Shown here one piece after another: positions 13,364 through 64,000 of a DNA stretch of 64,000 nucleotides. The notes under the pieces are model-generated. The model worked only from the letters and a program-made list of their open reading frames with translations, was not told the DNA's origin and made no database searches. Source of the DNA: Candidatus Woesearchaeota archaeon (GTDB lineage Archaea; Nanobdellota; Nanobdellia; Woesearchaeales; WJKR01); the NCBI GenBank assembly GCA_016927245.1, contig JAFGNA010000006.1, positions 17,230 to 81,229 of the forward strand, read 5' to 3'. Made by a program: the position numbers and the translations under genes. Numbering within the stretch: position 1 is the first letter of the stretch; each line of letters opens with the position of its first letter.

Positions 13364-14371
13364 TTTTCTTGTCTTCCTGAACGGCAATCCTTCCTTGCCG
13401 TGGTGGAGCCAGTGGAAGCTCATCGCGGTGAACCCTGCGAGGCTGAGGATGATGTCCTTGAGCCTGGTGATGAGGGCGACGCCGATGCCCGTGCTGGCGC
13501 CCAGGCCTATCATCTTGAAGATGCCTGCTTGTCCCGCTTCGAGGGTGCCGAGGGCCATGGGGATGGGGATGAGGTATGCCGCGCCGATGAAGGTGATGAT
13601 GAGGAAGAGTTCCAGGATGCTCGTCGCGGGGTGGCCGAGGATGGCGAGGACGATGCCGTACTCGACGAACATGAGCGCCCAGGAGAGGAGGCTGATGAGC
13701 ACCGCCGCGAAGAACTTCTTCCGGTCCTGCTTGTAGAATCGCGTGATGTGCTCGTCGTACTCCTGGATGTGCTTCACCCATTGCTTTCCCTGCTTGGTGC
13801 GGTGCAGCCGTAGTAGCTTGAAGAGCTTGGTGTTGAGATCCTTCCCGCTGAACATCTGGGCGTAGAACAGTCCTATGAGGACGAGCAGGATGATGGAGGT
13901 GATGATCATCATTCCCGTTGCTCCTTCAGGGGTGATGTGCGCTAATAAGAGCACGGCTGCGCCGATGATGAAGAACGTGCCCGAGGCGGTGAGCTCGATG
14001 GTCTTGTCGATGAACACCGTGCTGCTCGCTTTTTGCAAGGAGCAGTGCCTGCTGAGGAGCCCTGCCCGGAACACCTCGCCGCCCATCTTCGCGCCCGGTG
14101 TGACGTAGCTCACCGCGTAGCCGATGAAGTAGTACCTGCACAGCTCCCAGAAGGAAGGGGTGGCGCCGTGCTGTGCCTTGATGATGACCCGCCACCGCCA
14201 TACCAATGCGAGCATGATGAGCAGGGTGATCGCCGCGTACGCCCCTACGAGCCTGAGCGTCGCGCCCGCCATGGTGTTGAACGCTTCTTGGAGCCCTACC
14301 TTCTCGAAGGTGATGATGGCCGCGGCGAGGCCGATGATGAGCGAGAGGGTGAGCGCTAGCCGTTTGTTCAT
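13361..14371 (-). CDS. Multi-pass membrane protein resembling the lysylphosphatidylglycerol-synthase TM (flippase-like, UPF0104) domain.
   Basis: The 336-aa translation has about 8 predicted TM helices and a pattern similar to the MprF N-terminal flippase region. No soluble domain. Confidence 0.5.
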   Translation of the reverse strand: MNKRLALTLSLIIGLAAAIITFEKVGLQEAFNTMAGATLRLVGAYAAITLLIMLALVWRWRVIIKAQHGATPSFWELCRYYFIGYAVSYVTPGAKMGGEVFRAGLLSRHCSLQKASSTVFIDKTIELTASGTFFIIGAAVLLLAHITPEGATGMMIITSIILLVLIGLFYAQMFSGKDLNTKLFKLLRLHRTKQGKQWVKHIQEYDEHITRFYKQDRKKFFAAVLISLLSWALMFVEYGIVLAILGHPATSILELFLIITFIGAAYLIPIPMALGTLEAGQAGIFKMIGLGASTGIGVALITRLKDIILSLAGFTAMSFHWLHHGKEGLPFRKTRK

Positions 14372-14397
14372 GGGGGTGCTGCCTTTTGCGATGGGTA

Positions 14398-14515
14398 CGA
14401 GCCTGGAGGGATTCGAACCCTCGACCTAGTGCTGGCTCCTCCGCTGTTGCGGGAGTAGGAGGCACTCGCGCTTTCTGGAGATTGAAAAAGCCTATCCAGG
14501 CTGCGCTACAGGCTC
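14398..14515 (-). tRNA. tRNA, probably tRNA-Arg(CCU), carrying two introns. One of about 21 nt lies in the D-arm region and one of 22 nt at the canonical 37/38 site.
   Basis: The minus-strand read shows acceptor GAGCCTG/CAGGCTC, T-arm GAGGG-TTCGAAT-CCCTC, anticodon stem AGTGC/GCACT and loop CUCCUA|intron|A. The gene is 118 nt versus about 75 nt for a mature tRNA. The extra sequence between GCGC (10-13) and its partner GCGC implies a second insertion. Confidence 0.55.
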
Positions 14516-14594
14516 AGGTAATGGCGAAAACCAGAAAGGGTTTAAAAAAGTTGTTCATGGGGGTTTATAAAACAGTGTTTCTTTCTCTTATCGC

Positions 14595-15542
14595 ATGCAC
14601 GTCCTGAAAGCGCGGCCAGAGGATTTCGTCGTCGAGGAGATCCCGAGTAGGGAGTGGAAGGACAAGGGCGCCTACCTCATCCTCGAGGTGACCAAGAAAG
14701 AGCGCAACACGGAGGACGTCGCTCAGCTCATCGCCACCAAGCTCGGGGTGAAGCGTTCAAGCGTCGCGTACGCCGGCCTGAAGGACAAGCATGCCGTGAC
14801 GACGCAGTACTTCTCCGTGCGGGGCAAGGGTAAGCACGCTGTGGACTGGCTGCGCATGGATGGTGTCTCCTTCAAGGCCATAGGGTTCACCGATGAGCCG
14901 CTCTCGCTCGGATCCTTGCGGGGCAATCGCTTCGCCATCACCGTGCGCAACATCGATTCTTTACCGGGTTACCGGTCATTGTTCCCTAACTGCTTCGACG
15001 AGCAGCGGTTCGGCGAGCACAACGACGACGTCGGCAAGGCTTTGGTTCGTGGGGACTTTTCGGAGGCGTGCGCGCTCATCGATGACGACCGAGTCCTAGG
15101 ATTCCTCGCTGAGCACCCTGGCGACCACGCCGGTGCCCTGCGCCAGCTGCCCAAGAAGCTCTTGACGCTGTACGTGCACGCCTACCAGTCGCGCCTGTTC
15201 AACAGAGTCCTGGAACTGCTGGTTGAGGAGCGGGGCGTGGAGGCTTTGCGCTCCGCGCGCATCCCCCTGCTCGGCTTCGGCACGGAGGACGTCGAGCTGT
15301 ATAAGCGCGTTATGGAGGAAGAGCGCATCTCACCGCGTGACTTCATCATCCGCTCCTTACCGGACATCTCCTCAGAAGGAGGTGAGCGGCAGGCGGTCAT
15401 CAACGTGAGTGATTTCTGGTTCGGCGAACTTGATGATGACGAGCTGCACCCGGGCAAGAAGAAGGTCGTCGTCACGTTCTCGCTTCCTAAGGGCGCGTAC
15501 GCGACGAACGTGATTAAGCGGTTGTGGTCACAGCCCGAATGA
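14595..15542 (+). CDS. truD: tRNA pseudouridine(13) synthase TruD/Pus7-like.
   Basis: The N-terminus MHVLKARPEDFVVEEIP is the TruD hallmark, and a conserved Asp-containing GLKDKHAVTTQ motif is present. Confidence 0.8.
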   Translation: MHVLKARPEDFVVEEIPSREWKDKGAYLILEVTKKERNTEDVAQLIATKLGVKRSSVAYAGLKDKHAVTTQYFSVRGKGKHAVDWLRMDGVSFKAIGFTDEPLSLGSLRGNRFAITVRNIDSLPGYRSLFPNCFDEQRFGEHNDDVGKALVRGDFSEACALIDDDRVLGFLAEHPGDHAGALRQLPKKLLTLYVHAYQSRLFNRVLELLVEERGVEALRSARIPLLGFGTEDVELYKRVMEEERISPRDFIIRSLPDISSEGGERQAVINVSDFWFGELDDDELHPGKKKVVVTFSLPKGAYATNVIKRLWSQPE

Positions 15543-56351: not shown

Positions 56352-56366
56352 GCTTTATAAATCCCC

Positions 56367-57983
56367 TTGCTCTGTGGGAACGGTATGGCTAGGCATACCT
56401 CTCCTTCGCTGCGGCTCGTCGAGCACGGCTTCATCAAGAGCGGCGCCCGCTCACTGTACAAGCAGGACGAGGCGACCGGCAAGTTCGTCATCATAGACGC
56501 GGAGAAGCACGGCAAGCCCGCTGAGAGCCACGCAGACGAGGAAGAAGCAGAAGAGGCGAACATCTCCGCCATGGGAGCCGGCGATTTCACCGCGCTCATC
56601 AAGACTGGCTATCCAGCCCCTGTCAAGCGCTACCGCCTCGTGTACGAATCCTTCAACATGAGCTTGGAGGAATTGTACTTCTGGTTCCTCAACCACCTCC
56701 GCCAAGACCAAGGCTACCCAAGAGTCGAGAAGATAACGGATATCTTCTCCGCCTCCGAGAACAGCGCGTTCTTCGGCCAATCAGCGCAGCGACTCAGCAT
56801 ACAAGAGGACCGGGCGAGCAGCTTCCTCAAAGGCATCGCCGAGCTGGTCAAGCAACTCTTCCAGATCGTGCGAGAACTCCGCATCATCGACGAGCGACTC
56901 GTCCCCTACCATGACTGGGAGGTCAAAGGAGAGGACGGCAAGACCCATCACTCGAAAGCGGCTGACAGCACGCTCAAAGGCGTCTTCGCCGACTTCGCCG
57001 AGAACAAGGGCGGCCAGATGCAGCCAGGAAGCATCTATCACCTGGCGCAGACCGTCGGCTATGCCTCCCTCCCTGACCTGTTCTTCAACACGCACGTGTA
57101 CAAGAAGGATGACGTCGACAAAGTCGTCGACGGCATGAAGCAGTTCAACGCGAACGTGCGCAACGTGCTCAAGCGCAAGATCTACCAATTCCTCGTGTGG
57201 CGCGAAAAGACCTATGACGAGCTCCAATCGCGCAGGCGATTCCAGATAAAATACTTGAGGCAGCACTGGGCCACTATCAAGATGTACATGTCCTGGACCA
57301 AGCCGTACCTCAAGCACATCAAGCGGCTGCACATGAACGAGCGGCAGATGGACAGCCCCGACCTCATCTCGGCTTTCGAGACGAGCATGACCGAGATTGA
57401 GATCCTGTGTGTGCGGCCGTCCAAGACCTCTTACCATCCGTGCGTGCTTGCGACGTTCGAGTTCAGCACCCGCCCTCTCATGCAGTACCGCCAGGAATAC
57501 CAGCAAGGACCAGTGCACGTCGGCAAAGGCACAGCAACGCTGCGCGCGTACGCGTGGACCGAGGAGCAGATAGCGCGTTACAAGAAGCTCAAGGAGGACG
57601 AGGACCGAGAGCTACTCTACCTTGTCGATGACTCGGTCGCTGCGGCCATGGAGGAGCTCGGCGATGACCTAGAGAAGTACCTGAACGAGCACGGCAAGGA
57701 CGTGTTCGACCGAGACGTGCACGCCAAGTTCGGCTCGTCGGAAGAGCCGCAGAAGAAGGGCAAGCTCAAGGCAGCCCCGTCAGCCCCTGTCTGGGAGCCG
57801 TTCGTCGCGGTTTTCTCAGGGTTGTGGGACGCGTTCAACGCGGTCATCCCTGTGGGTGGGTTGGCGCGGAAGAAGCCTTCCGGTCCTTCGGGCAAGCCTA
57901 GCGGCGCTGCCAAGATCGCCGCTGGCACGATGTGGCAGGCGTTCAAGAACTACAAGAAGGCGCATGGGTTGTTGTCATGGTGA
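56367..57983 (+). CDS. Hypothetical 538-aa protein, first gene of an overlapping three-gene operon.
   Basis: No recognisable motif. Its stop overlaps the next start, and a TATA-like ctttataaat lies about 20 nt upstream. Confidence 0.45.
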   Translation: MLCGNGMARHTSPSLRLVEHGFIKSGARSLYKQDEATGKFVIIDAEKHGKPAESHADEEEAEEANISAMGAGDFTALIKTGYPAPVKRYRLVYESFNMSLEELYFWFLNHLRQDQGYPRVEKITDIFSASENSAFFGQSAQRLSIQEDRASSFLKGIAELVKQLFQIVRELRIIDERLVPYHDWEVKGEDGKTHHSKAADSTLKGVFADFAENKGGQMQPGSIYHLAQTVGYASLPDLFFNTHVYKKDDVDKVVDGMKQFNANVRNVLKRKIYQFLVWREKTYDELQSRRRFQIKYLRQHWATIKMYMSWTKPYLKHIKRLHMNERQMDSPDLISAFETSMTEIEILCVRPSKTSYHPCVLATFEFSTRPLMQYRQEYQQGPVHVGKGTATLRAYAWTEEQIARYKKLKEDEDRELLYLVDDSVAAAMEELGDDLEKYLNEHGKDVFDRDVHAKFGSSEEPQKKGKLKAAPSAPVWEPFVAVFSGLWDAFNAVIPVGGLARKKPSGPSGKPSGAAKIAAGTMWQAFKNYKKAHGLLSW

Positions 57984-58597
57984 TCACTGAGGCTGACCTG
58001 GAGAACATGGCGCCAGCCGAGCGCATCAAGGCGCTGCGCCGGTTGCAGATGGAGAAGCGGAAGGAGCTCGAGGAGCTCCAGGAACAGAAGTCGAAGGAGA
58101 TTGCCGAGGTGCAAAGCCGTCTCGAACGGAGCCTCGAGGACCTCGAGCTCGAGGAGGAGCGAGTCCGTGAAGAAGAGGGGTCTCGCCGTCAGCAGCGAGA
58201 GAATCGCCCTTTGGAGGAGTCAGTGGCTGAGGCTCCTGTCTCTGAGACGCCCGGGCAGGGCGCGGGGCCCGCGACGTACGGGAGCGCCTTGGAACGGCTC
58301 ATGCCTGGCAACTTGCAAGACTTGTCGGATTACAACTTGTACGGCGAGCTTCGGTCGTTGGAGGAGAAGGGTTACCTCACACCTGATGAGCAGCGGCGCG
58401 TCGCCGACCTGCAGCGCCAGGCTGAGGGTATCACTGCCGCGTACTCGCGGCGTGACCGCGACCGCGTGGATGAGCAACGAGGACACTACCTGTCCCGTAC
58501 AGAAAACGTGCTCAAGCGACTCCAGGACAAGATGCACGACCTTAGCGGGGGCTTGTACGACCTGAACAAGAGGGATCACGATGCAGTTTACCAATAA
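57932..58597 (+). CDS. Hypothetical acidic coiled-coil protein (221 aa).
   Basis: E/R-rich heptad-like sequence. It overlaps both neighbours, suggesting translational coupling. Confidence 0.4.
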   Translation: MAGVQELQEGAWVVVMVITEADLENMAPAERIKALRRLQMEKRKELEELQEQKSKEIAEVQSRLERSLEDLELEEERVREEEGSRRQQRENRPLEESVAEAPVSETPGQGAGPATYGSALERLMPGNLQDLSDYNLYGELRSLEEKGYLTPDEQRRVADLQRQAEGITAAYSRRDRDRVDEQRGHYLSRTENVLKRLQDKMHDLSGGLYDLNKRDHDAVYQ

Positions 58598-60596
58598 TAA
58601 CTATTATCATGCCATGGACCAGTTCGGCAGCGACCAGGTCATCGAGCCCTTGGTCAGCGAGGACGAGGGCGCGGTCAAGGACGCCTTGTCCTTCGGCACC
58701 GCTGAGCTCGGCACGACCACAAACCCGATGGGGAACACGCTCGACTCGGTCAAGTCGCGCATCATGGAGGGGGCTGGGAGGCTGGAGTTCGAGTTCATCG
58801 GCAAGGGGAAGGGGAACTCTCAGTCGCCGACGCCGGAGTCGTTCGGGGTGAGGGAGCGCCAGGACATGCGTGAATTGCTGACCATCAATGATATCAAGTC
58901 GTCCGTGCACGCCTCGGTGCACACCGAGTCGCTCGCAGGGTTCGGCCGCGACGGCTTCAGCGGTGCGCAGCGGGAGGAGGCGTTGCGCGAGATCAAGCGA
59001 GCCATCGACTTCGCCGGCGACGTCACGGACGGCGGGGCTATCGTCTTCCACCTGTCAGAGTGGCAGCGCCCCATGGTGCACGCCGGTCAGCGCAAGGAGA
59101 AGCAGTGGATGTTCAAGGGGTATGATACTGAGGAGAAGGACAGCCCCATGCTCGTCGTGGACGACCGTACCGGCAGGGTGATCAGCGGCGTGACGAGGGA
59201 TACGTATGTGTACGAGCCGAAGTTTGAGACTGTCAAGGAGCGAAACCCGTCCTTGATAGGGACGCGCGTGGACGGCCGGCTCGTCACCGGCGATGAATGG
59301 GTGGATATCAAGGGCCAGCCCGTGTTCCGGGATGACAACGTCGAGCGCATGTTCGACCGCGTACCGGTGTGGAACAAGGACAAGACGAACTTCGAGGTCG
59401 AGCATCTCACATGGGAGAAATTCGTCGAGCGCGCTGACGAGTACAACAAGCTGCACCCTGACAAGCAGGTCACGCCCGAGGAGATGTTCGCGCGCACCAC
59501 TATCCAGAACCGTGTCTTGCAGGCCAAAGGGTCGAGCTTGTATCACGCCCTACATTATGATGCCTTTCAGAAGCGGCAGGAGAAGCTGCGCCAAGCCTTG
59601 GAGTTGTACGAGGCGTATGAGGGTGACCTGCCGCCAGAGGCGCGTGAGCAACTCAAGGAGCTGGTAAGTGATGTTCCTGGGGTTGCAGGCCAGTTCACGA
59701 GAGGTGATTACCAGCTCCCGACCGAGATTATTAAGAGGGAGTTGGAGGACGCTGAGAATCAAATGCGCCACATCCATGAGTCCTCCGCCTCCGCGGATGC
59801 GCAGGCCATCGAGTACTTGGAGCAGATCAAGCATCTCAAGACTGCTGAGGAGTACGGCTTGGAGAAGACCGCTGACAGCATCGCCAAGGTGGGCTTGCTT
59901 GCCATGGAGGAGTCTCGCCGCAAGGGACTCAAGAACCCGTTGTACGCCGCTCCGGAGAACTATGACCAGCACTTGTACGGCTCGCACCCGTCTGAGATGC
60001 GCAAGGTAATCGAGGAGGGACGGAAGGCCATGGCGCAGCAGCTCGTCAAGGAGAAGAAGGCTGCTGACCTGAAGCAAGGGTTGGAAATCGCGAAGCAGCA
60101 CATCAAGGCCACGCTGGACATCGGGCACATGAACATGTGGCGGCAGTACTTTGACCCGACGGATGAGAAAGGCAAGAGCATTTACAAGACGGCGGAGGAG
60201 CGGGAAAAGGCGTTCGAGAAATGGTTGCTCAATGAGTCAGAGCGGCTCATCAAGGATGGCATCGTCGGCCACGTCCACCTCACTGACAACTACGGCTACG
60301 GGGACGAGCACCTTACCCCTGGCCAGGGCAACGTGCCGATGAAGGAGTTCTTGAAGCGCATGGAGAAGGCTGGTATGAAGGACTTGATAGTGGAGCCTGG
60401 CTCCTATAATATTAGCACGTCGCTCTTCGACACGTTGTCCTTGGTAGGCAGCCCGGTGTATGGCGTGGGCCGCTTGCCACGGTTCAACCAGGTCCAGCAC
60501 GCGCACTTCGGGTACAACGCGCCGCCGTTCTTCATCGCAGGGGCGTACGCGCCCAGCAATGATTGGCGTCCGTGGACCGAGGTTCCTTTGGAGTAG
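58581..60596 (+). CDS. Xylose-isomerase-like TIM-barrel (AP endonuclease 2/sugar-phosphate isomerase superfamily) protein with a roughly 330-aa helical insertion.
   Basis: The N-terminal HASVHTE...IDFAGDVTDGGAIVFHLSEW and C-terminal LDIGHMNMW...GIVGHVHLTDNYGYGDEHLTPGQGNVPMKEFLKRM...IVEPG match the His/Asp/Glu metal-site strands of this fold. The middle 330 aa are coiled-coil-like. Confidence 0.45.
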   Translation: MQFTNNNYYHAMDQFGSDQVIEPLVSEDEGAVKDALSFGTAELGTTTNPMGNTLDSVKSRIMEGAGRLEFEFIGKGKGNSQSPTPESFGVRERQDMRELLTINDIKSSVHASVHTESLAGFGRDGFSGAQREEALREIKRAIDFAGDVTDGGAIVFHLSEWQRPMVHAGQRKEKQWMFKGYDTEEKDSPMLVVDDRTGRVISGVTRDTYVYEPKFETVKERNPSLIGTRVDGRLVTGDEWVDIKGQPVFRDDNVERMFDRVPVWNKDKTNFEVEHLTWEKFVERADEYNKLHPDKQVTPEEMFARTTIQNRVLQAKGSSLYHALHYDAFQKRQEKLRQALELYEAYEGDLPPEAREQLKELVSDVPGVAGQFTRGDYQLPTEIIKRELEDAENQMRHIHESSASADAQAIEYLEQIKHLKTAEEYGLEKTADSIAKVGLLAMEESRRKGLKNPLYAAPENYDQHLYGSHPSEMRKVIEEGRKAMAQQLVKEKKAADLKQGLEIAKQHIKATLDIGHMNMWRQYFDPTDEKGKSIYKTAEEREKAFEKWLLNESERLIKDGIVGHVHLTDNYGYGDEHLTPGQGNVPMKEFLKRMEKAGMKDLIVEPGSYNISTSLFDTLSLVGSPVYGVGRLPRFNQVQHAHFGYNAPPFFIAGAYAPSNDWRPWTEVPLE

Positions 60597-60647
60597 AAAG
60601 CTATATATAGGAAGGGTGCGATGCAGGAGTAGAGGTGAGGGTGAGCA

Positions 60648-61448: not shown

Positions 61449-62465
61449 CTACTGCCGTATCTCTTTCAGTCTCTCCTCGACCTGTACCTTGTCCGCGACG
61501 TTCGCCTCATAGAACGTGGCGACTATTTTTCCCATCGCTTCGACGAGGAGGTCTTTCTCCATTCTGCCTTCCTTTCTCCATGAGGTGTAATTCCCCAATA
61601 GGCATCCTTGTATTGAGTGTTGGTGCTCACGCACGCTTTCATATCCTTTGCCTTCTTCGCTGCAGTGGTTCAGGTCGTAGAAGACGTTGTTTTGCCACGG
61701 GTTCAGCCTGAACTGCCGCATCTTCCTGTTGAATCTCCCGTAGGTGGTTTCGAATGCTCCCTTCTCTTCCAGGAGGAACAATGGTATGGAGTAGTCGTTG
61801 TCGACGTATTCGTTGAAGTACTTGATTTTGTAGTTCTTGAAGCTATGATAGAAATTGCTGTGCCTCCCTCCTTTTTGATCGTTGAGGAACGCTTGCGTGC
61901 TTTCCGGCAGCGCGGAGAACAGGGTCGTCTCGAGGTCTGTGTCCTCGAGGTTGAAGGCGGGCACGGTCTTGTTGAACAGGTAGAAGAGGGGGAGGCGGTG
62001 CGTGATTGCCATCGGCGCAGTCTCTATCGTGCCGTATTTGAGGTCGTGGTCCATGCGCATGATGACCTTGAAGGAGAAGTCATCCGCGTAGAGCCTCTCT
62101 TTCGCGTGCGCCTCTATCTCTTTCCTCGTCGCTTTCATCTCCTGGTCGAGGTCGTGCACCTTGCCCGCTACTTCTTTCGTGAGCGCTTGCTTGCTTTCCC
62201 GGACCTTCTCCATCGACGTTTTTTTCGCCGGTACCTGCTGCGAGGCCGTCAGCTCCTCGTGGTCCGTGAGCTTGTTCATGACGTTCTCCAGCACCGCGTA
62301 GGTCACTCCGTCATGCAGGTCGTGCGCCTTCTTCAGGTCTTCCTTGGCCACTTGTAGCCGGTATAGCTTGAGGTAGAGGTCGTCGATGGAGGAATCGATA
62401 TTTTCCGTCTTCTTGGCGAGCACATGCTTGGGTATGATGCCGTCGATGAGGTCGTCGAAAACCAT
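61449..62465 (-). CDS. Hypothetical 338-aa protein convergent with the NTase gene.
   Basis: No motif recognised. Confidence 0.35.
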   Translation of the reverse strand: MVFDDLIDGIIPKHVLAKKTENIDSSIDDLYLKLYRLQVAKEDLKKAHDLHDGVTYAVLENVMNKLTDHEELTASQQVPAKKTSMEKVRESKQALTKEVAGKVHDLDQEMKATRKEIEAHAKERLYADDFSFKVIMRMDHDLKYGTIETAPMAITHRLPLFYLFNKTVPAFNLEDTDLETTLFSALPESTQAFLNDQKGGRHSNFYHSFKNYKIKYFNEYVDNDYSIPLFLLEEKGAFETTYGRFNRKMRQFRLNPWQNNVFYDLNHCSEEGKGYESVREHQHSIQGCLLGNYTSWRKEGRMEKDLLVEAMGKIVATFYEANVADKVQVEERLKEIRQ

Positions 62466-63467: not shown

Positions 63468-64000
63468 TCATTTCTTGCCGCCGAGCGCGCTCGCCGCCAC
63501 GACGACGATGAGGATGACGAGTAGCACGACGATGAGGATGAGCAATGCCAGGTAGGTGGTGCTTCCTCGGTCGAGGAGCTTGCTCGGCGTTCCCGTGGTC
63601 GTGGCCACCACGCTGCCGGTGGTGCCGGTGCTCGGCGTCGGGGTGACGATATCGATCTCGTCTTCCTCTTCCTCCTCTTCCTCTTCTTCGTCTTCCTCAT
63701 CAGTGGTGCAGGCGAGGATGACGAGGTCTGCTGAGGTGATGTCTGTCTGGTCGTCCTCGGTTGGCTCCGTGAACACTTGTATGGTGATGAAGTACTGCCC
63801 GGGGTCGAGGTTTTCGCGCAGGGGCAGGGCGACTTCCTTGGTGAGGTCATCTCCTTCCTCTATGTCCATGTCCCTGACTATGACTTCATCTTTGAGTGCC
63901 TCGCCGGTGATGAGCAGGGTGCCTCTGTCTATGTCCCTGGTGCCTGCGTTCTCGATGTTGACGCGGAGTTGAGGATTGATCGTGGTGCAGGCTTCGACGT
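63468..64000 (-). CDS. Partial (N-terminus beyond the window) acidic surface protein with a poly-Glu tract, a Thr/Pro/Gly-rich linker and a C-terminal TM anchor ending GGKK.
   Basis: The reading frame is open from the window edge through ...DEEDEEEEEEEEED...TPTPSTGTTGS...ALLILIVVLLVILIVVVAASALGGKK. Confidence 0.45.
   Translation of the reverse strand, partial: VEACTTINPQLRVNIENAGTRDIDRGTLLITGEALKDEVIVRDMDIEEGDDLTKEVALPLRENLDPGQYFITIQVFTEPTEDDQTDITSADLVILACTTDEEDEEEEEEEEEDEIDIVTPTPSTGTTGSVVATTTGTPSKLLDRGSTTYLALLILIVVLLVILIVVVAASALGGKK

Follow-up and report, generated by a model that had tools for sequence, protein, structure and literature searches.

Here, we describe a conserved, translationally coupled unit of three genes, ORF1, ORF2, and ORF3 (open reading frames with the NCBI locus tags JXA12_01145, JXA12_01150, and JXA12_01155), in a metagenome-assembled genome of a Candidatus Woesearchaeota archaeon. 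The genes lie on a 93-kb contig, of which a window of 64,000 nucleotides (nt) was analyzed (JAFGNA010000006.1, positions 17,230 to 81,229). ORF3 is a (β/α)8-barrel protein in which a folded domain is inserted between strands β4 and β5 and in which residues identical to all nine zinc ligands of endonuclease IV are invariant among homologs; ORF1 and ORF2 are orphan proteins, basic and acidic, respectively. Our reading, which is tentative and which we hold to be possible rather than probable, is that the trio is a Woesearchaeota/Nanoarchaeia-specific chromosomal operon for a complex built around an endonuclease IV-type metallo-phosphoesterase, with nucleic acid ends as the most likely substrate. 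Woesearchaeota are abundant, uncultured archaea with reduced genomes, and genes kept this conserved in such genomes likely matter; their annotation goes no further than "hypothetical" or a generic "TIM barrel". A literature search retrieved no paper on the ORF3 family or on the trio. The catalytic fold is well known; the novelty lies in the architecture with the insertion, in the orphan partners, and in an operon found across the lineage. A first-pass annotation, made from the sequence, had called an operon of three plus-strand ORFs here, and all three are present.

ORF3 is a TIM barrel with a folded insertion

ORF3 matches the Pfam family PF01261 (AP_endonuc_2) in two stretches (E = 1e-13; 52 bits, cutoff 31.1), and 119 of the 120 ORF3 homologs listed carry the same family as a precomputed assignment. 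In an AlphaFold2 (AF2) model based on 44 homologs (predicted local distance difference test, pLDDT, 84; predicted template modeling score, pTM, 0.80), eight strands follow in order and form a complete (β/α)8 barrel, with β1 to β4 at residues 43-46, 67-71, 106-110, and 152-157 and β5 to β8 at residues 454-459, 510-513, 562-567, and 602-604. Foldseek searches of the PDB returned structures of this superfamily with a probability of 1.0; the top matches are MJ1311 of Methanocaldococcus jannaschii (3wqo; E = 1e-4), D-tagatose and D-psicose 3-epimerases, endonuclease IV of Thermotoga maritima (4hno; E = 8e-4), and YcjR. Some of these alignments run over ~600 columns, bridging the insertion and covering barrels of ~290 residues, with TM scores of 0.59 to 0.65 on the target. 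Profile and fold searches thus give the xylose isomerase/endonuclease IV-like barrel that the first-pass annotation had proposed, with metal-site strands at both ends of the protein and a long insertion between them, and not an unrelated fold.

The insertion had been described as a K/E-rich coiled coil of ~330 residues. It is indeed long and has long helices (residues 299-349, 380-417, and 422-448); however, it measures ~286 residues and includes a β-rich subdomain at residues ~185-277, and the module is predicted to be folded, with a pLDDT mostly of 83 to 93. Lys and Glu make up only ~20% of it, and therefore "K/E-rich coiled coil" undersells this domain. Because the insertion takes the place of the β4-α4 loop, it lies on the catalytic face of the barrel, where it probably contributes to the surface that binds the substrate or acts as a lid. 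A ~286-residue insertion at this face is absent from all superfamily structures matched by the fold search. In an alignment of the 44 homologs (38-72% identical to the query), from which all conservation figures for ORF3 are taken, the insertion has a mean column identity of 0.50 compared with 0.63 to 0.68 for the barrel; 6 positions of the insertion are invariant and 28 nearly so, and its conserved motifs are ENxVLQAKGxSLYHA, MRHIHESSASADAQA, and TVExYGLxKTA. Two more specific identities for parts of the insertion were considered and rejected. A Rad50-like zinc hook does not fit, as the tip loop (residues 350-379) is poorly conserved and lacks a Cys pair, and the match of the β-rich subdomain to the RRM-like protein IST3 (E ~0.1) is not significant.

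Two further parts of ORF3 are conserved. The N-terminal 28 and the C-terminal 44 residues are modeled with low pLDDT (30 to 46 in the C-terminal tail), and the C-terminal tail, HFGYxxPxFFIAGAYAPSNEWxLWSEVPLE, is conserved at the level of the barrel (mean column identity 0.65, 5 invariant positions), making it a candidate docking peptide. A glycine-rich β2-α2 loop (FxGxGKGNSQxPTPESFG; residues 72-90, nt ~58794-58850) is ~12 residues longer than in the superfamily members of Escherichia coli; on the catalytic face, it could serve to bind phosphate.

The putative metal site of ORF3 resembles that of endonuclease IV

Endonuclease IV (Nfo/Apn1), an apurinic/apyrimidinic (AP) endonuclease and 3'-repair diesterase, has the (β/α)8 fold that is predicted for ORF3. 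In the E. coli enzyme, three zinc ions are held by H69, H109, E145, D179, H182, H216, D229, H231, and E261. All nine residues were confirmed in the Nfo sequence of E. coli K-12, and the nine catalytic residues of endonuclease IV are also mentioned in PMC2770678. In ORF3, the invariant residues of the N-terminal half of the barrel are H110 at the end of β3 and H157 and E160 at the end of β4, and those of the C-terminal half are E459, D513, H516, H564, H566, D575, H577, and E605. Among them, we propose H110, H157, E459, D513, H516, H566, D575, H577, and E605, each conserved in 100% of the 44 homologs, as the equivalents of the nine Nfo ligands in this order; the residues are the same at all nine positions, three of which are assigned by motif or strand.

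ORF3 and Nfo are ~12-14% identical. Comparison of the ORF3 profile with the lone Nfo sequence by hhalign gave either no alignment or one out of register, and MAFFT --add and simple pairwise global alignment were unreliable; usable alignments came only from G-INS-i on insertion-spliced sequences and from a multi-family alignment with the superfamily members of E. coli (Nfo, FrlC, Hyi, UlaE, and YcjR). In the global MAFFT alignment of insertion-spliced ORF3 with Nfo, six of the nine ligands match exactly. The other three are misplaced, with H69 on H114, E261 on G607, and E145 on E478; H69 and E261 land a few columns from invariant ORF3 residues. In the multi-family alignment, H110 pairs with Nfo H69, and the full ligand set is present only in Nfo among the five E. 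coli proteins. E459 (APEN versus VIEN) and E605 (IVE versus ILE) were assigned by motif and by their position at the predicted ends of β5 and β8.

ORF3 also has the E-D-H-E tetrad of the superfamily (E459, D513, H566, and E605 at the predicted ends of β5 to β8; invariant in the 44 sequences), which it shares, together with the fold, with the PF01261 ketose 3-epimerases and sugar-phosphate isomerases (the D-tagatose and D-psicose 3-epimerases DTEase and DPEase, FrlC, UlaE, YcjR, and Hyi). Unlike ORF3, these sugar enzymes lack the His ligands at the ends of β3 and β4 and mostly lack the D-x-H motif; specifically, FrlC, Hyi, UlaE, and YcjR have no His at the end of β4, and D-x-H is found only in FrlC. 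The presence of nine endonuclease IV-type ligands, and not just the four-residue set of sugar isomerases, favors phosphoester chemistry over sugar isomerization and shifts the working hypothesis for this family away from carbohydrate metabolism. The existing annotation of homologs as "sugar phosphate isomerase/epimerase" therefore looks doubtful.

Among solved structures, the nearest relative of ORF3 by both sequence and fold is MJ1311, a "D-tagatose 3-epimerase-like protein" (profile E = 1.1e-9; single sequence E = 1.9e-4). The two proteins have in common the motifs VHAP/VHAS, DIGH-N, and H-x-H-x-x-DN-GYDDEHL-x-G-x-GN, with significant similarity limited to ~50 residues around β7. Unlike ORF3, MJ1311 is a plain barrel of 293 residues without the insertion or the conserved tails; ORF3 and the 120 homologs listed are ~500-714 residues long and have the insertion, compared with the ~290-residue single domain of MJ1311. 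ORF3 also differs from endonuclease IV, by the insertion on the substrate face and by its place in an operon with two orphan proteins. Moreover, Nfo has PH-D-S-Y where ORF3 has VH-A-S-V, leaving Nfo Tyr72 unmatched; the position is Val in ORF3 in the multi-family alignment, which is unreliable at this level of identity. Arg37, Tyr72, and Leu73 of Nfo are DNA-groove and nucleotide-flipping residues, with Tyr72 part of the DNA-flipping wedge, and it is on this face that ORF3 has its insertion. On the basis of these sequence comparisons, we file ORF3 as a member of the PF01261 superfamily and a relative of MJ1311 with a putative endonuclease IV-type metal site, and not as an Nfo ortholog. MJ1311 has itself been listed as the endonuclease IV homolog of M. 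jannaschii (PMC2770678).

Proposed chemistry and substrate of ORF3

By analogy to endonuclease IV, three metals bound to ORF3 would activate water, stabilize the leaving group, and hydrolyze a phosphodiester or phosphomonoester. The likeliest substrate would be a nucleic acid backbone or a blocked 3' end, as in AP-site or 3'-end processing; we infer a nucleic acid substrate from the analogy to endonuclease IV and from the basic nature of the partner protein ORF1. The first-pass annotation had left a choice between nucleic acid and sugar processing by a metal-dependent complex. The nine ligands favor phosphoester over sugar chemistry, and the coupling of the genes, discussed below, suggests a complex.

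Several observations weigh against this assignment. The equivalences of H110, E459, and E605 are based on strand order and motifs instead of a single automatic alignment. ORF3 itself is acidic and includes no basic domain. MJ1311, according to the paper on its structure, reportedly keeps the same nine residues and lacks the DNA-binding groove of endonuclease IV. None of the 44 ORF3 family members matches the curated NCBIfam model of endonuclease IV (nfo) at E ≤ 1, and the only consistent curated matches are weak ones, to FrlC in all 44 members and to Hyi in 14. Finally, PF1383, another archaeal endonuclease IV-like protein, showed no AP endonuclease activity on AP-DNA (PMC2770678). To compare genomic settings, we used 80 genome loci with an ORF3 relative plus one locus of a 630-kb contig, 81 in all; E. 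coli Nfo had no tblastn match in these loci or in the window, and archaeal forms at ~13% identity would escape this search.

The curated matches bear on an alternative that we consider unlikely, namely, that ORF3 is a sugar or sugar-phosphate isomerase/epimerase whose E-D-H-E tetrad binds one or two metals and whose insertion functions in oligomerization or regulation. The presence of the tetrad, the occurrence of D-x-H in FrlC, and the sugar epimerases and YcjR among the top fold matches are consistent with it, as are the best curated matches, to fructoselysine 3-epimerase (FrlC) and hydroxypyruvate isomerase (Hyi), and the source names of homologs, which in NCBI and JGI include "sugar phosphate isomerase/epimerase" beside "hypothetical protein" and "TIM barrel protein". 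However, the FrlC match of ORF3 reaches 20.4 bits against a cutoff of 305 (best member E = 7e-7) and covers the β7 motif only, and the invariant His residues at the ends of β3 and β4, H516, and D575/H577 belong to a set that is complete only in endonuclease IV among the five proteins compared. Unlike ORF3, the PF01261 sugar enzymes are single-domain proteins of ~260-290 residues encoded in sugar-utilization operons, and no sugar metabolism genes are linked to the trio in the window or in the related loci. Moreover, Woesearchaeales keep only a partial central metabolism (bioRxiv 10.64898/2026.05.13.725050).

ORF1 and ORF2 are orphan proteins

As stated in the first-pass annotation, neither ORF1 nor ORF2 has recognizable motifs. 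ORF1, searched as a single sequence, matches no family in Pfam, NCBIfam, PHROG, or PADLOC; its homologs (48-69% identity) have no precomputed Pfam domain, and among 42 aligned family members scanned against Pfam at E ≤ 5, no Pfam family was matched by more than three. A HMMER scan of 1.84 billion representatives clustered at 50% identity (E ≤ 1e-3) placed 678 clusters in the ORF1 family, all ~450-560 residues long, and the best 150 matches listed are members of this family only. The source names of the homologs are Woesearchaeota and Nanoarchaeota only, and the mean column identity over the sampled relatives is 57%. The AF2 model of ORF1 (pLDDT 76; pTM 0.53) has mixed β-sheets flanked by helices of 50-60 residues. 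The ORF1 profile has no match among PDB sequences, and Foldseek with the model gave no significant match in the PDB (best EmrA, E = 0.015) or BFVD (best E = 0.03), both best matches being of a generic long-helix type. Lacking a structural relative in either database, ORF1 is, together with the insertion domain of ORF3, a good target for structural and biochemical work.

ORF1 is basic (isoelectric point, pI, 8.6; family median 8.8). Its helix at residues 256-330 is strongly basic (pI 10.3), and its C-terminal tail, which has low pLDDT and is conserved in homologs, is basic and aromatic and ends in HG(L/M)LSW, i.e., ...KNYKKAHGMLSW. ORF2 is the acidic partner that had been noted (46 Asp/Glu and 34 Lys/Arg; pI 4.95, family median 5.1) and is probably helical. 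It evolves fast: conservation is restricted to the N-terminal ~50 residues and a few Tyr and Gly, and a word search found 11 homologs (42-57% identical). No Pfam, NCBIfam, PHROG, or PADLOC family was found for ORF2 beyond coiled-coil noise (PHROG/PADLOC E > 0.007). We suggest that ORF1 and ORF2 would be noncatalytic partners produced coordinately with ORF3 from a single transcript, that the basic helix and tail of ORF1 would bind a polyanionic substrate or target the complex, and that the conserved, disordered tails of ORF1 and ORF3 would serve as docking peptides. Assembly of the trio is suggested by these tails together with the coupling of the genes.

The composition of ORF1 also bears on a reading that we regard as quite unlikely, in which ORF3 is a three-metal phosphodiesterase acting on a non-nucleic substrate (phospholipid head groups or a phosphodiester polymer or metabolite scavenged from the host) and the C-terminal aromatic and basic helices of ORF1 tether it to a membrane or surface. 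ORF1 has a Phe-rich hydrophobic segment at residues 473-491 (Kyte-Doolittle value 1.46) and, after it, a helix rich in basic and aromatic residues (MWxxYKNYKKAHGMLSW); the acidity of ORF3 is unusual for a DNA enzyme; and the nine-ligand site speaks as much for this activity as for one on nucleic acids. DPANN archaea, in addition, rely on their host for lipids and nucleotides. On the other side, no transmembrane segment or signal peptide is predicted in ORF1, ORF2, or ORF3, no lipid metabolism genes are linked to the trio in the related loci, and we know of no lipid-acting member of this barrel family.

A minor observation concerns ORF1 and the ORF3 insertion. The top motif of the insertion, QxENxVLQAKGxSLYHA (residues ~308-324, nt ~59502-59552), resembles the top motif of ORF1, FAENKGGQxQPGSIYHLAQ (residues ~204-222, nt ~56994-57050), in a common EN..Q..GS[LI]YH. 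The likeness of these short stretches may be due to chance or to a common binding motif. That ORF1 is a relative of the insertion was rejected (hhalign probability 0.1%).

Conservation and linkage of the three genes

Each gene of the trio has homologs, at 38-71% identity for ORF1 and ORF3 and at 42-57% for ORF2, which speaks against chance open reading frames. ORF1 lies within ~1-2 kb of ORF3 in ~66 of the 81 loci, usually with an ORF2 homolog between them; ORF2, detected by an iterated hidden Markov model (HMM), is present in 64. The genes are closely packed: the median spacer is 28 nt between ORF1 and ORF2, with an identical 7-nt overlap, ATGGTGA, in 12 of 49 loci, and 16 nt between ORF2 and ORF3, with overlapping or abutting genes in 21 of 56. 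These overlaps and operon-like spacers bear out the tightly coupled cluster of the first-pass annotation, and the trio is co-conserved in most, not all, related loci. In six loci (L001, L005, L008, L012, L014, and L028), ORF1 and ORF2 are inverted together with respect to ORF3 and still adjacent to it, and in L039 and L040, ORF2 stays beside ORF3 with ORF1 inverted or displaced. All three families appear confined to one lineage.

The linkage has exceptions that count against a functional unit. Five loci have ORF1 and ORF3 and lack ORF2; ORF1 was not found within 10 kb of ORF3 in four loci (L011, L069, L076, and L079); and linkage of ORF1 to ORF3 is lost in a marine sublineage, where ORF1 is placed behind membrane protein genes. 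In L040, L047, and L072, other genes stand between members of the trio. Also, KefB, YhbY, the nucleotidyltransferase (NTase), and TYW3 are often syntenic with the trio in the related loci, and adjacency within the trio therefore partly reflects relatedness. These observations would be expected if the arrangement were inherited synteny and packing in compact genomes, with no complex, ORF3 acting alone, and ORF1 and ORF2 having an unrelated function, and synteny is generally high in this order. We nevertheless regard this explanation as improbable: start/stop overlaps recur among the three genes and never with the NTase, adjacency has outlasted independent inversions with ORF2 traveling with either partner, and the three families appear limited to the same lineage.

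A more specific version of our preferred reading of the trio as an operon for a metallo-phosphoesterase complex would be an undescribed heteromeric enzyme confined to Woesearchaeales, in which a three-metal barrel has acquired a substrate-face domain and works with ORF1, of a new fold, and the acidic, helical ORF2. We consider this version somewhat unlikely. Its role could be, for example, nucleic acid end repair or salvage, or the processing of host-derived phosphodiesters, as needed by reduced DPANN genomes, and the adjacent NTase may act on the product.

A viral or mobile origin of the cluster was rejected, as ORF1 and ORF3 have no relatives in the viral contigs of IMG/VR; the trio also has no match among the antiphage defense and phage families of PADLOC and PHROG beyond the noise described for ORF2.

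Some of the loci are unusual in themselves. L068, a Nanoarchaeota single-cell genome (SAG AM-311-M09), has a second full-length ORF3 paralog at 13535-15388, ~1.8 kb downstream of the first (barrel HMM E = 3e-113). Two contigs assigned to marine Woesearchaeota that carry an ORF1 homolog encode a bacterial-type sigma-70 factor (Pfam Sigma70 r1_2 to r4; L083 16803-17647 and L084 12677-13251), which points to horizontal transfer or to a contig that is chimeric or misbinned. Many contigs with the cluster (L003, L005, L006, and others) are titled "uncultured Methanosarcinales archaeon", and L071, L043, and L026 are titled "Alphaproteobacteria bacterium", "Euryarchaeota", and "Methanobacteriota", respectively; in these cases, the source records are probably mislabeled taxonomically.

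Gene layout and start sites

The features of the cluster and its flanks are listed in Table 1.

Table 1. Positions of the trio, the parts of ORF3, and flanking features in the window
Feature	Position	Strand	Basis
YhbY/CRM RNA-binding protein, 92 residues	56073..56351	+	Pfam PF01985, E = 1.3e-17
TATA box-like element ctttataaat, ~25-30 nt before the ORF1 ATG	56353..56362	+	Read from sequence
ORF1, basic orphan-family protein, 532 residues	56385..57983	+	NCBI model
ORF2, acidic charged protein, 206 residues	57977..58597	+	NCBI model
ORF3, endonuclease IV/MJ1311-like TIM-barrel putative metalloenzyme with insertion, 671 residues, whole gene	58581..60596	+	Pfam PF01261
ORF3 barrel, N-terminal half, residues 36-164, β1-β4	58686..59072	+	AF2, alignment
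ORF3 insertion, residues ~165-450, between β4 and β5	59073..59930	+	AF2 secondary structure
ORF3 barrel, C-terminal half, residues 451-627, β5-β8	59931..60461	+	AF2, alignment
ORF3 C-terminal tail, residues 628-671, and stop codon	60462..60596	+	AF2, alignment
TATA-like element ctatatata, between the ORF3 stop and the NTase gene	60601..60609	+	Read from sequence
NTase, MNT/kanamycin nucleotidyltransferase type, 266 residues	60648..61448	+	Pfam Polbeta/NTP_transf_2

The first-pass annotation had given lengths of 538, 221, and 671 residues and overlaps of 52 and 17 nt. The length of ORF3 and the 17-nt overlap of ORF2 with ORF3 stand; the other values change with the start sites. ORF1 most likely starts at ATG 56385 rather than at TTG 56367, because the NCBI model has this length and the TATA-like element lies at a matching distance upstream. 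Similarly, ORF2 most likely starts at ATG 57977 rather than at GTG 57932, because this is the start in the NCBI model and homologs keep the "MV" N terminus. Therefore, the ORF1/ORF2 overlap is 7 nt (ATGGTGA) and not 52 nt. These letters (57977-57983), shared by the window and 11 related loci, the 12 mentioned above, code both for the end of ORF1 (a Trp codon and the stop) and for the Met-Val with which ORF2 starts and which homologs keep; this double use may account for the conservation of both the ORF1 C terminus and the ORF2 N terminus. A Shine-Dalgarno-like GAGGGATCAC lies upstream of the ORF3 ATG. The TATA-like element before ORF1 directly follows the stop of the YhbY/CRM gene, and, from sequence, its distance to ORF1 would fit a leaderless or short-leader archaeal transcript. 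Both upstream features had been called correctly. An Rfam scan of the trio region found no RNA family.

The downstream nucleotidyltransferase and other neighboring genes

The conserved neighborhood takes in a fourth gene beyond the three of the first-pass annotation. In most related loci, the NTase gene adjoins ORF3, in some of them in the opposite orientation, and its product has a mean column identity of 63%. The ORF3-to-NTase spacer has a median of 74 nt, with overlap in 0 of 44 loci. Because it never overlaps ORF3 and has a TATA-like element of its own in the window, which suggests a separate transcript, the NTase gene is a conserved neighbor of the trio rather than part of its transcript. 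The protein has an N-terminal NTase fold with a GS...DxD motif and a C-terminal helical domain, and MNT-like models of PADLOC match it; the profile finds an NTase domain in the PDB at E = 5e-4. In fold, helical domain, and length it is similar to kanamycin nucleotidyltransferase and MNT; however, the similarity to kanamycin nucleotidyltransferase is weak (E = 0.014), and the gene belongs to the core of the lineage and is not a resistance or toxin-antitoxin gene.

Upstream of ORF1, a YhbY/CRM gene is present in ~25 of the 81 loci (tblastn). Between the NTase and TYW3 genes lies an ORF of 338 residues (61449-62465, minus strand), probably helical, with no Pfam family and weak coiled-coil-type Pfam matches only. 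Since tblastn matched it in 0 of the 81 loci and the region is otherwise syntenic, it appears to be a strain-specific insertion. An ORF of 133 residues (63468-63869, minus strand) has a run of ~16 Glu/Asp and a hydrophobic C-terminal segment. On the minus strand at 14398-14515, Rfam gives a tRNA of 118 nt (48 bits) at a place where ARAGORN gives none; it may be an intron-containing archaeal tRNA.

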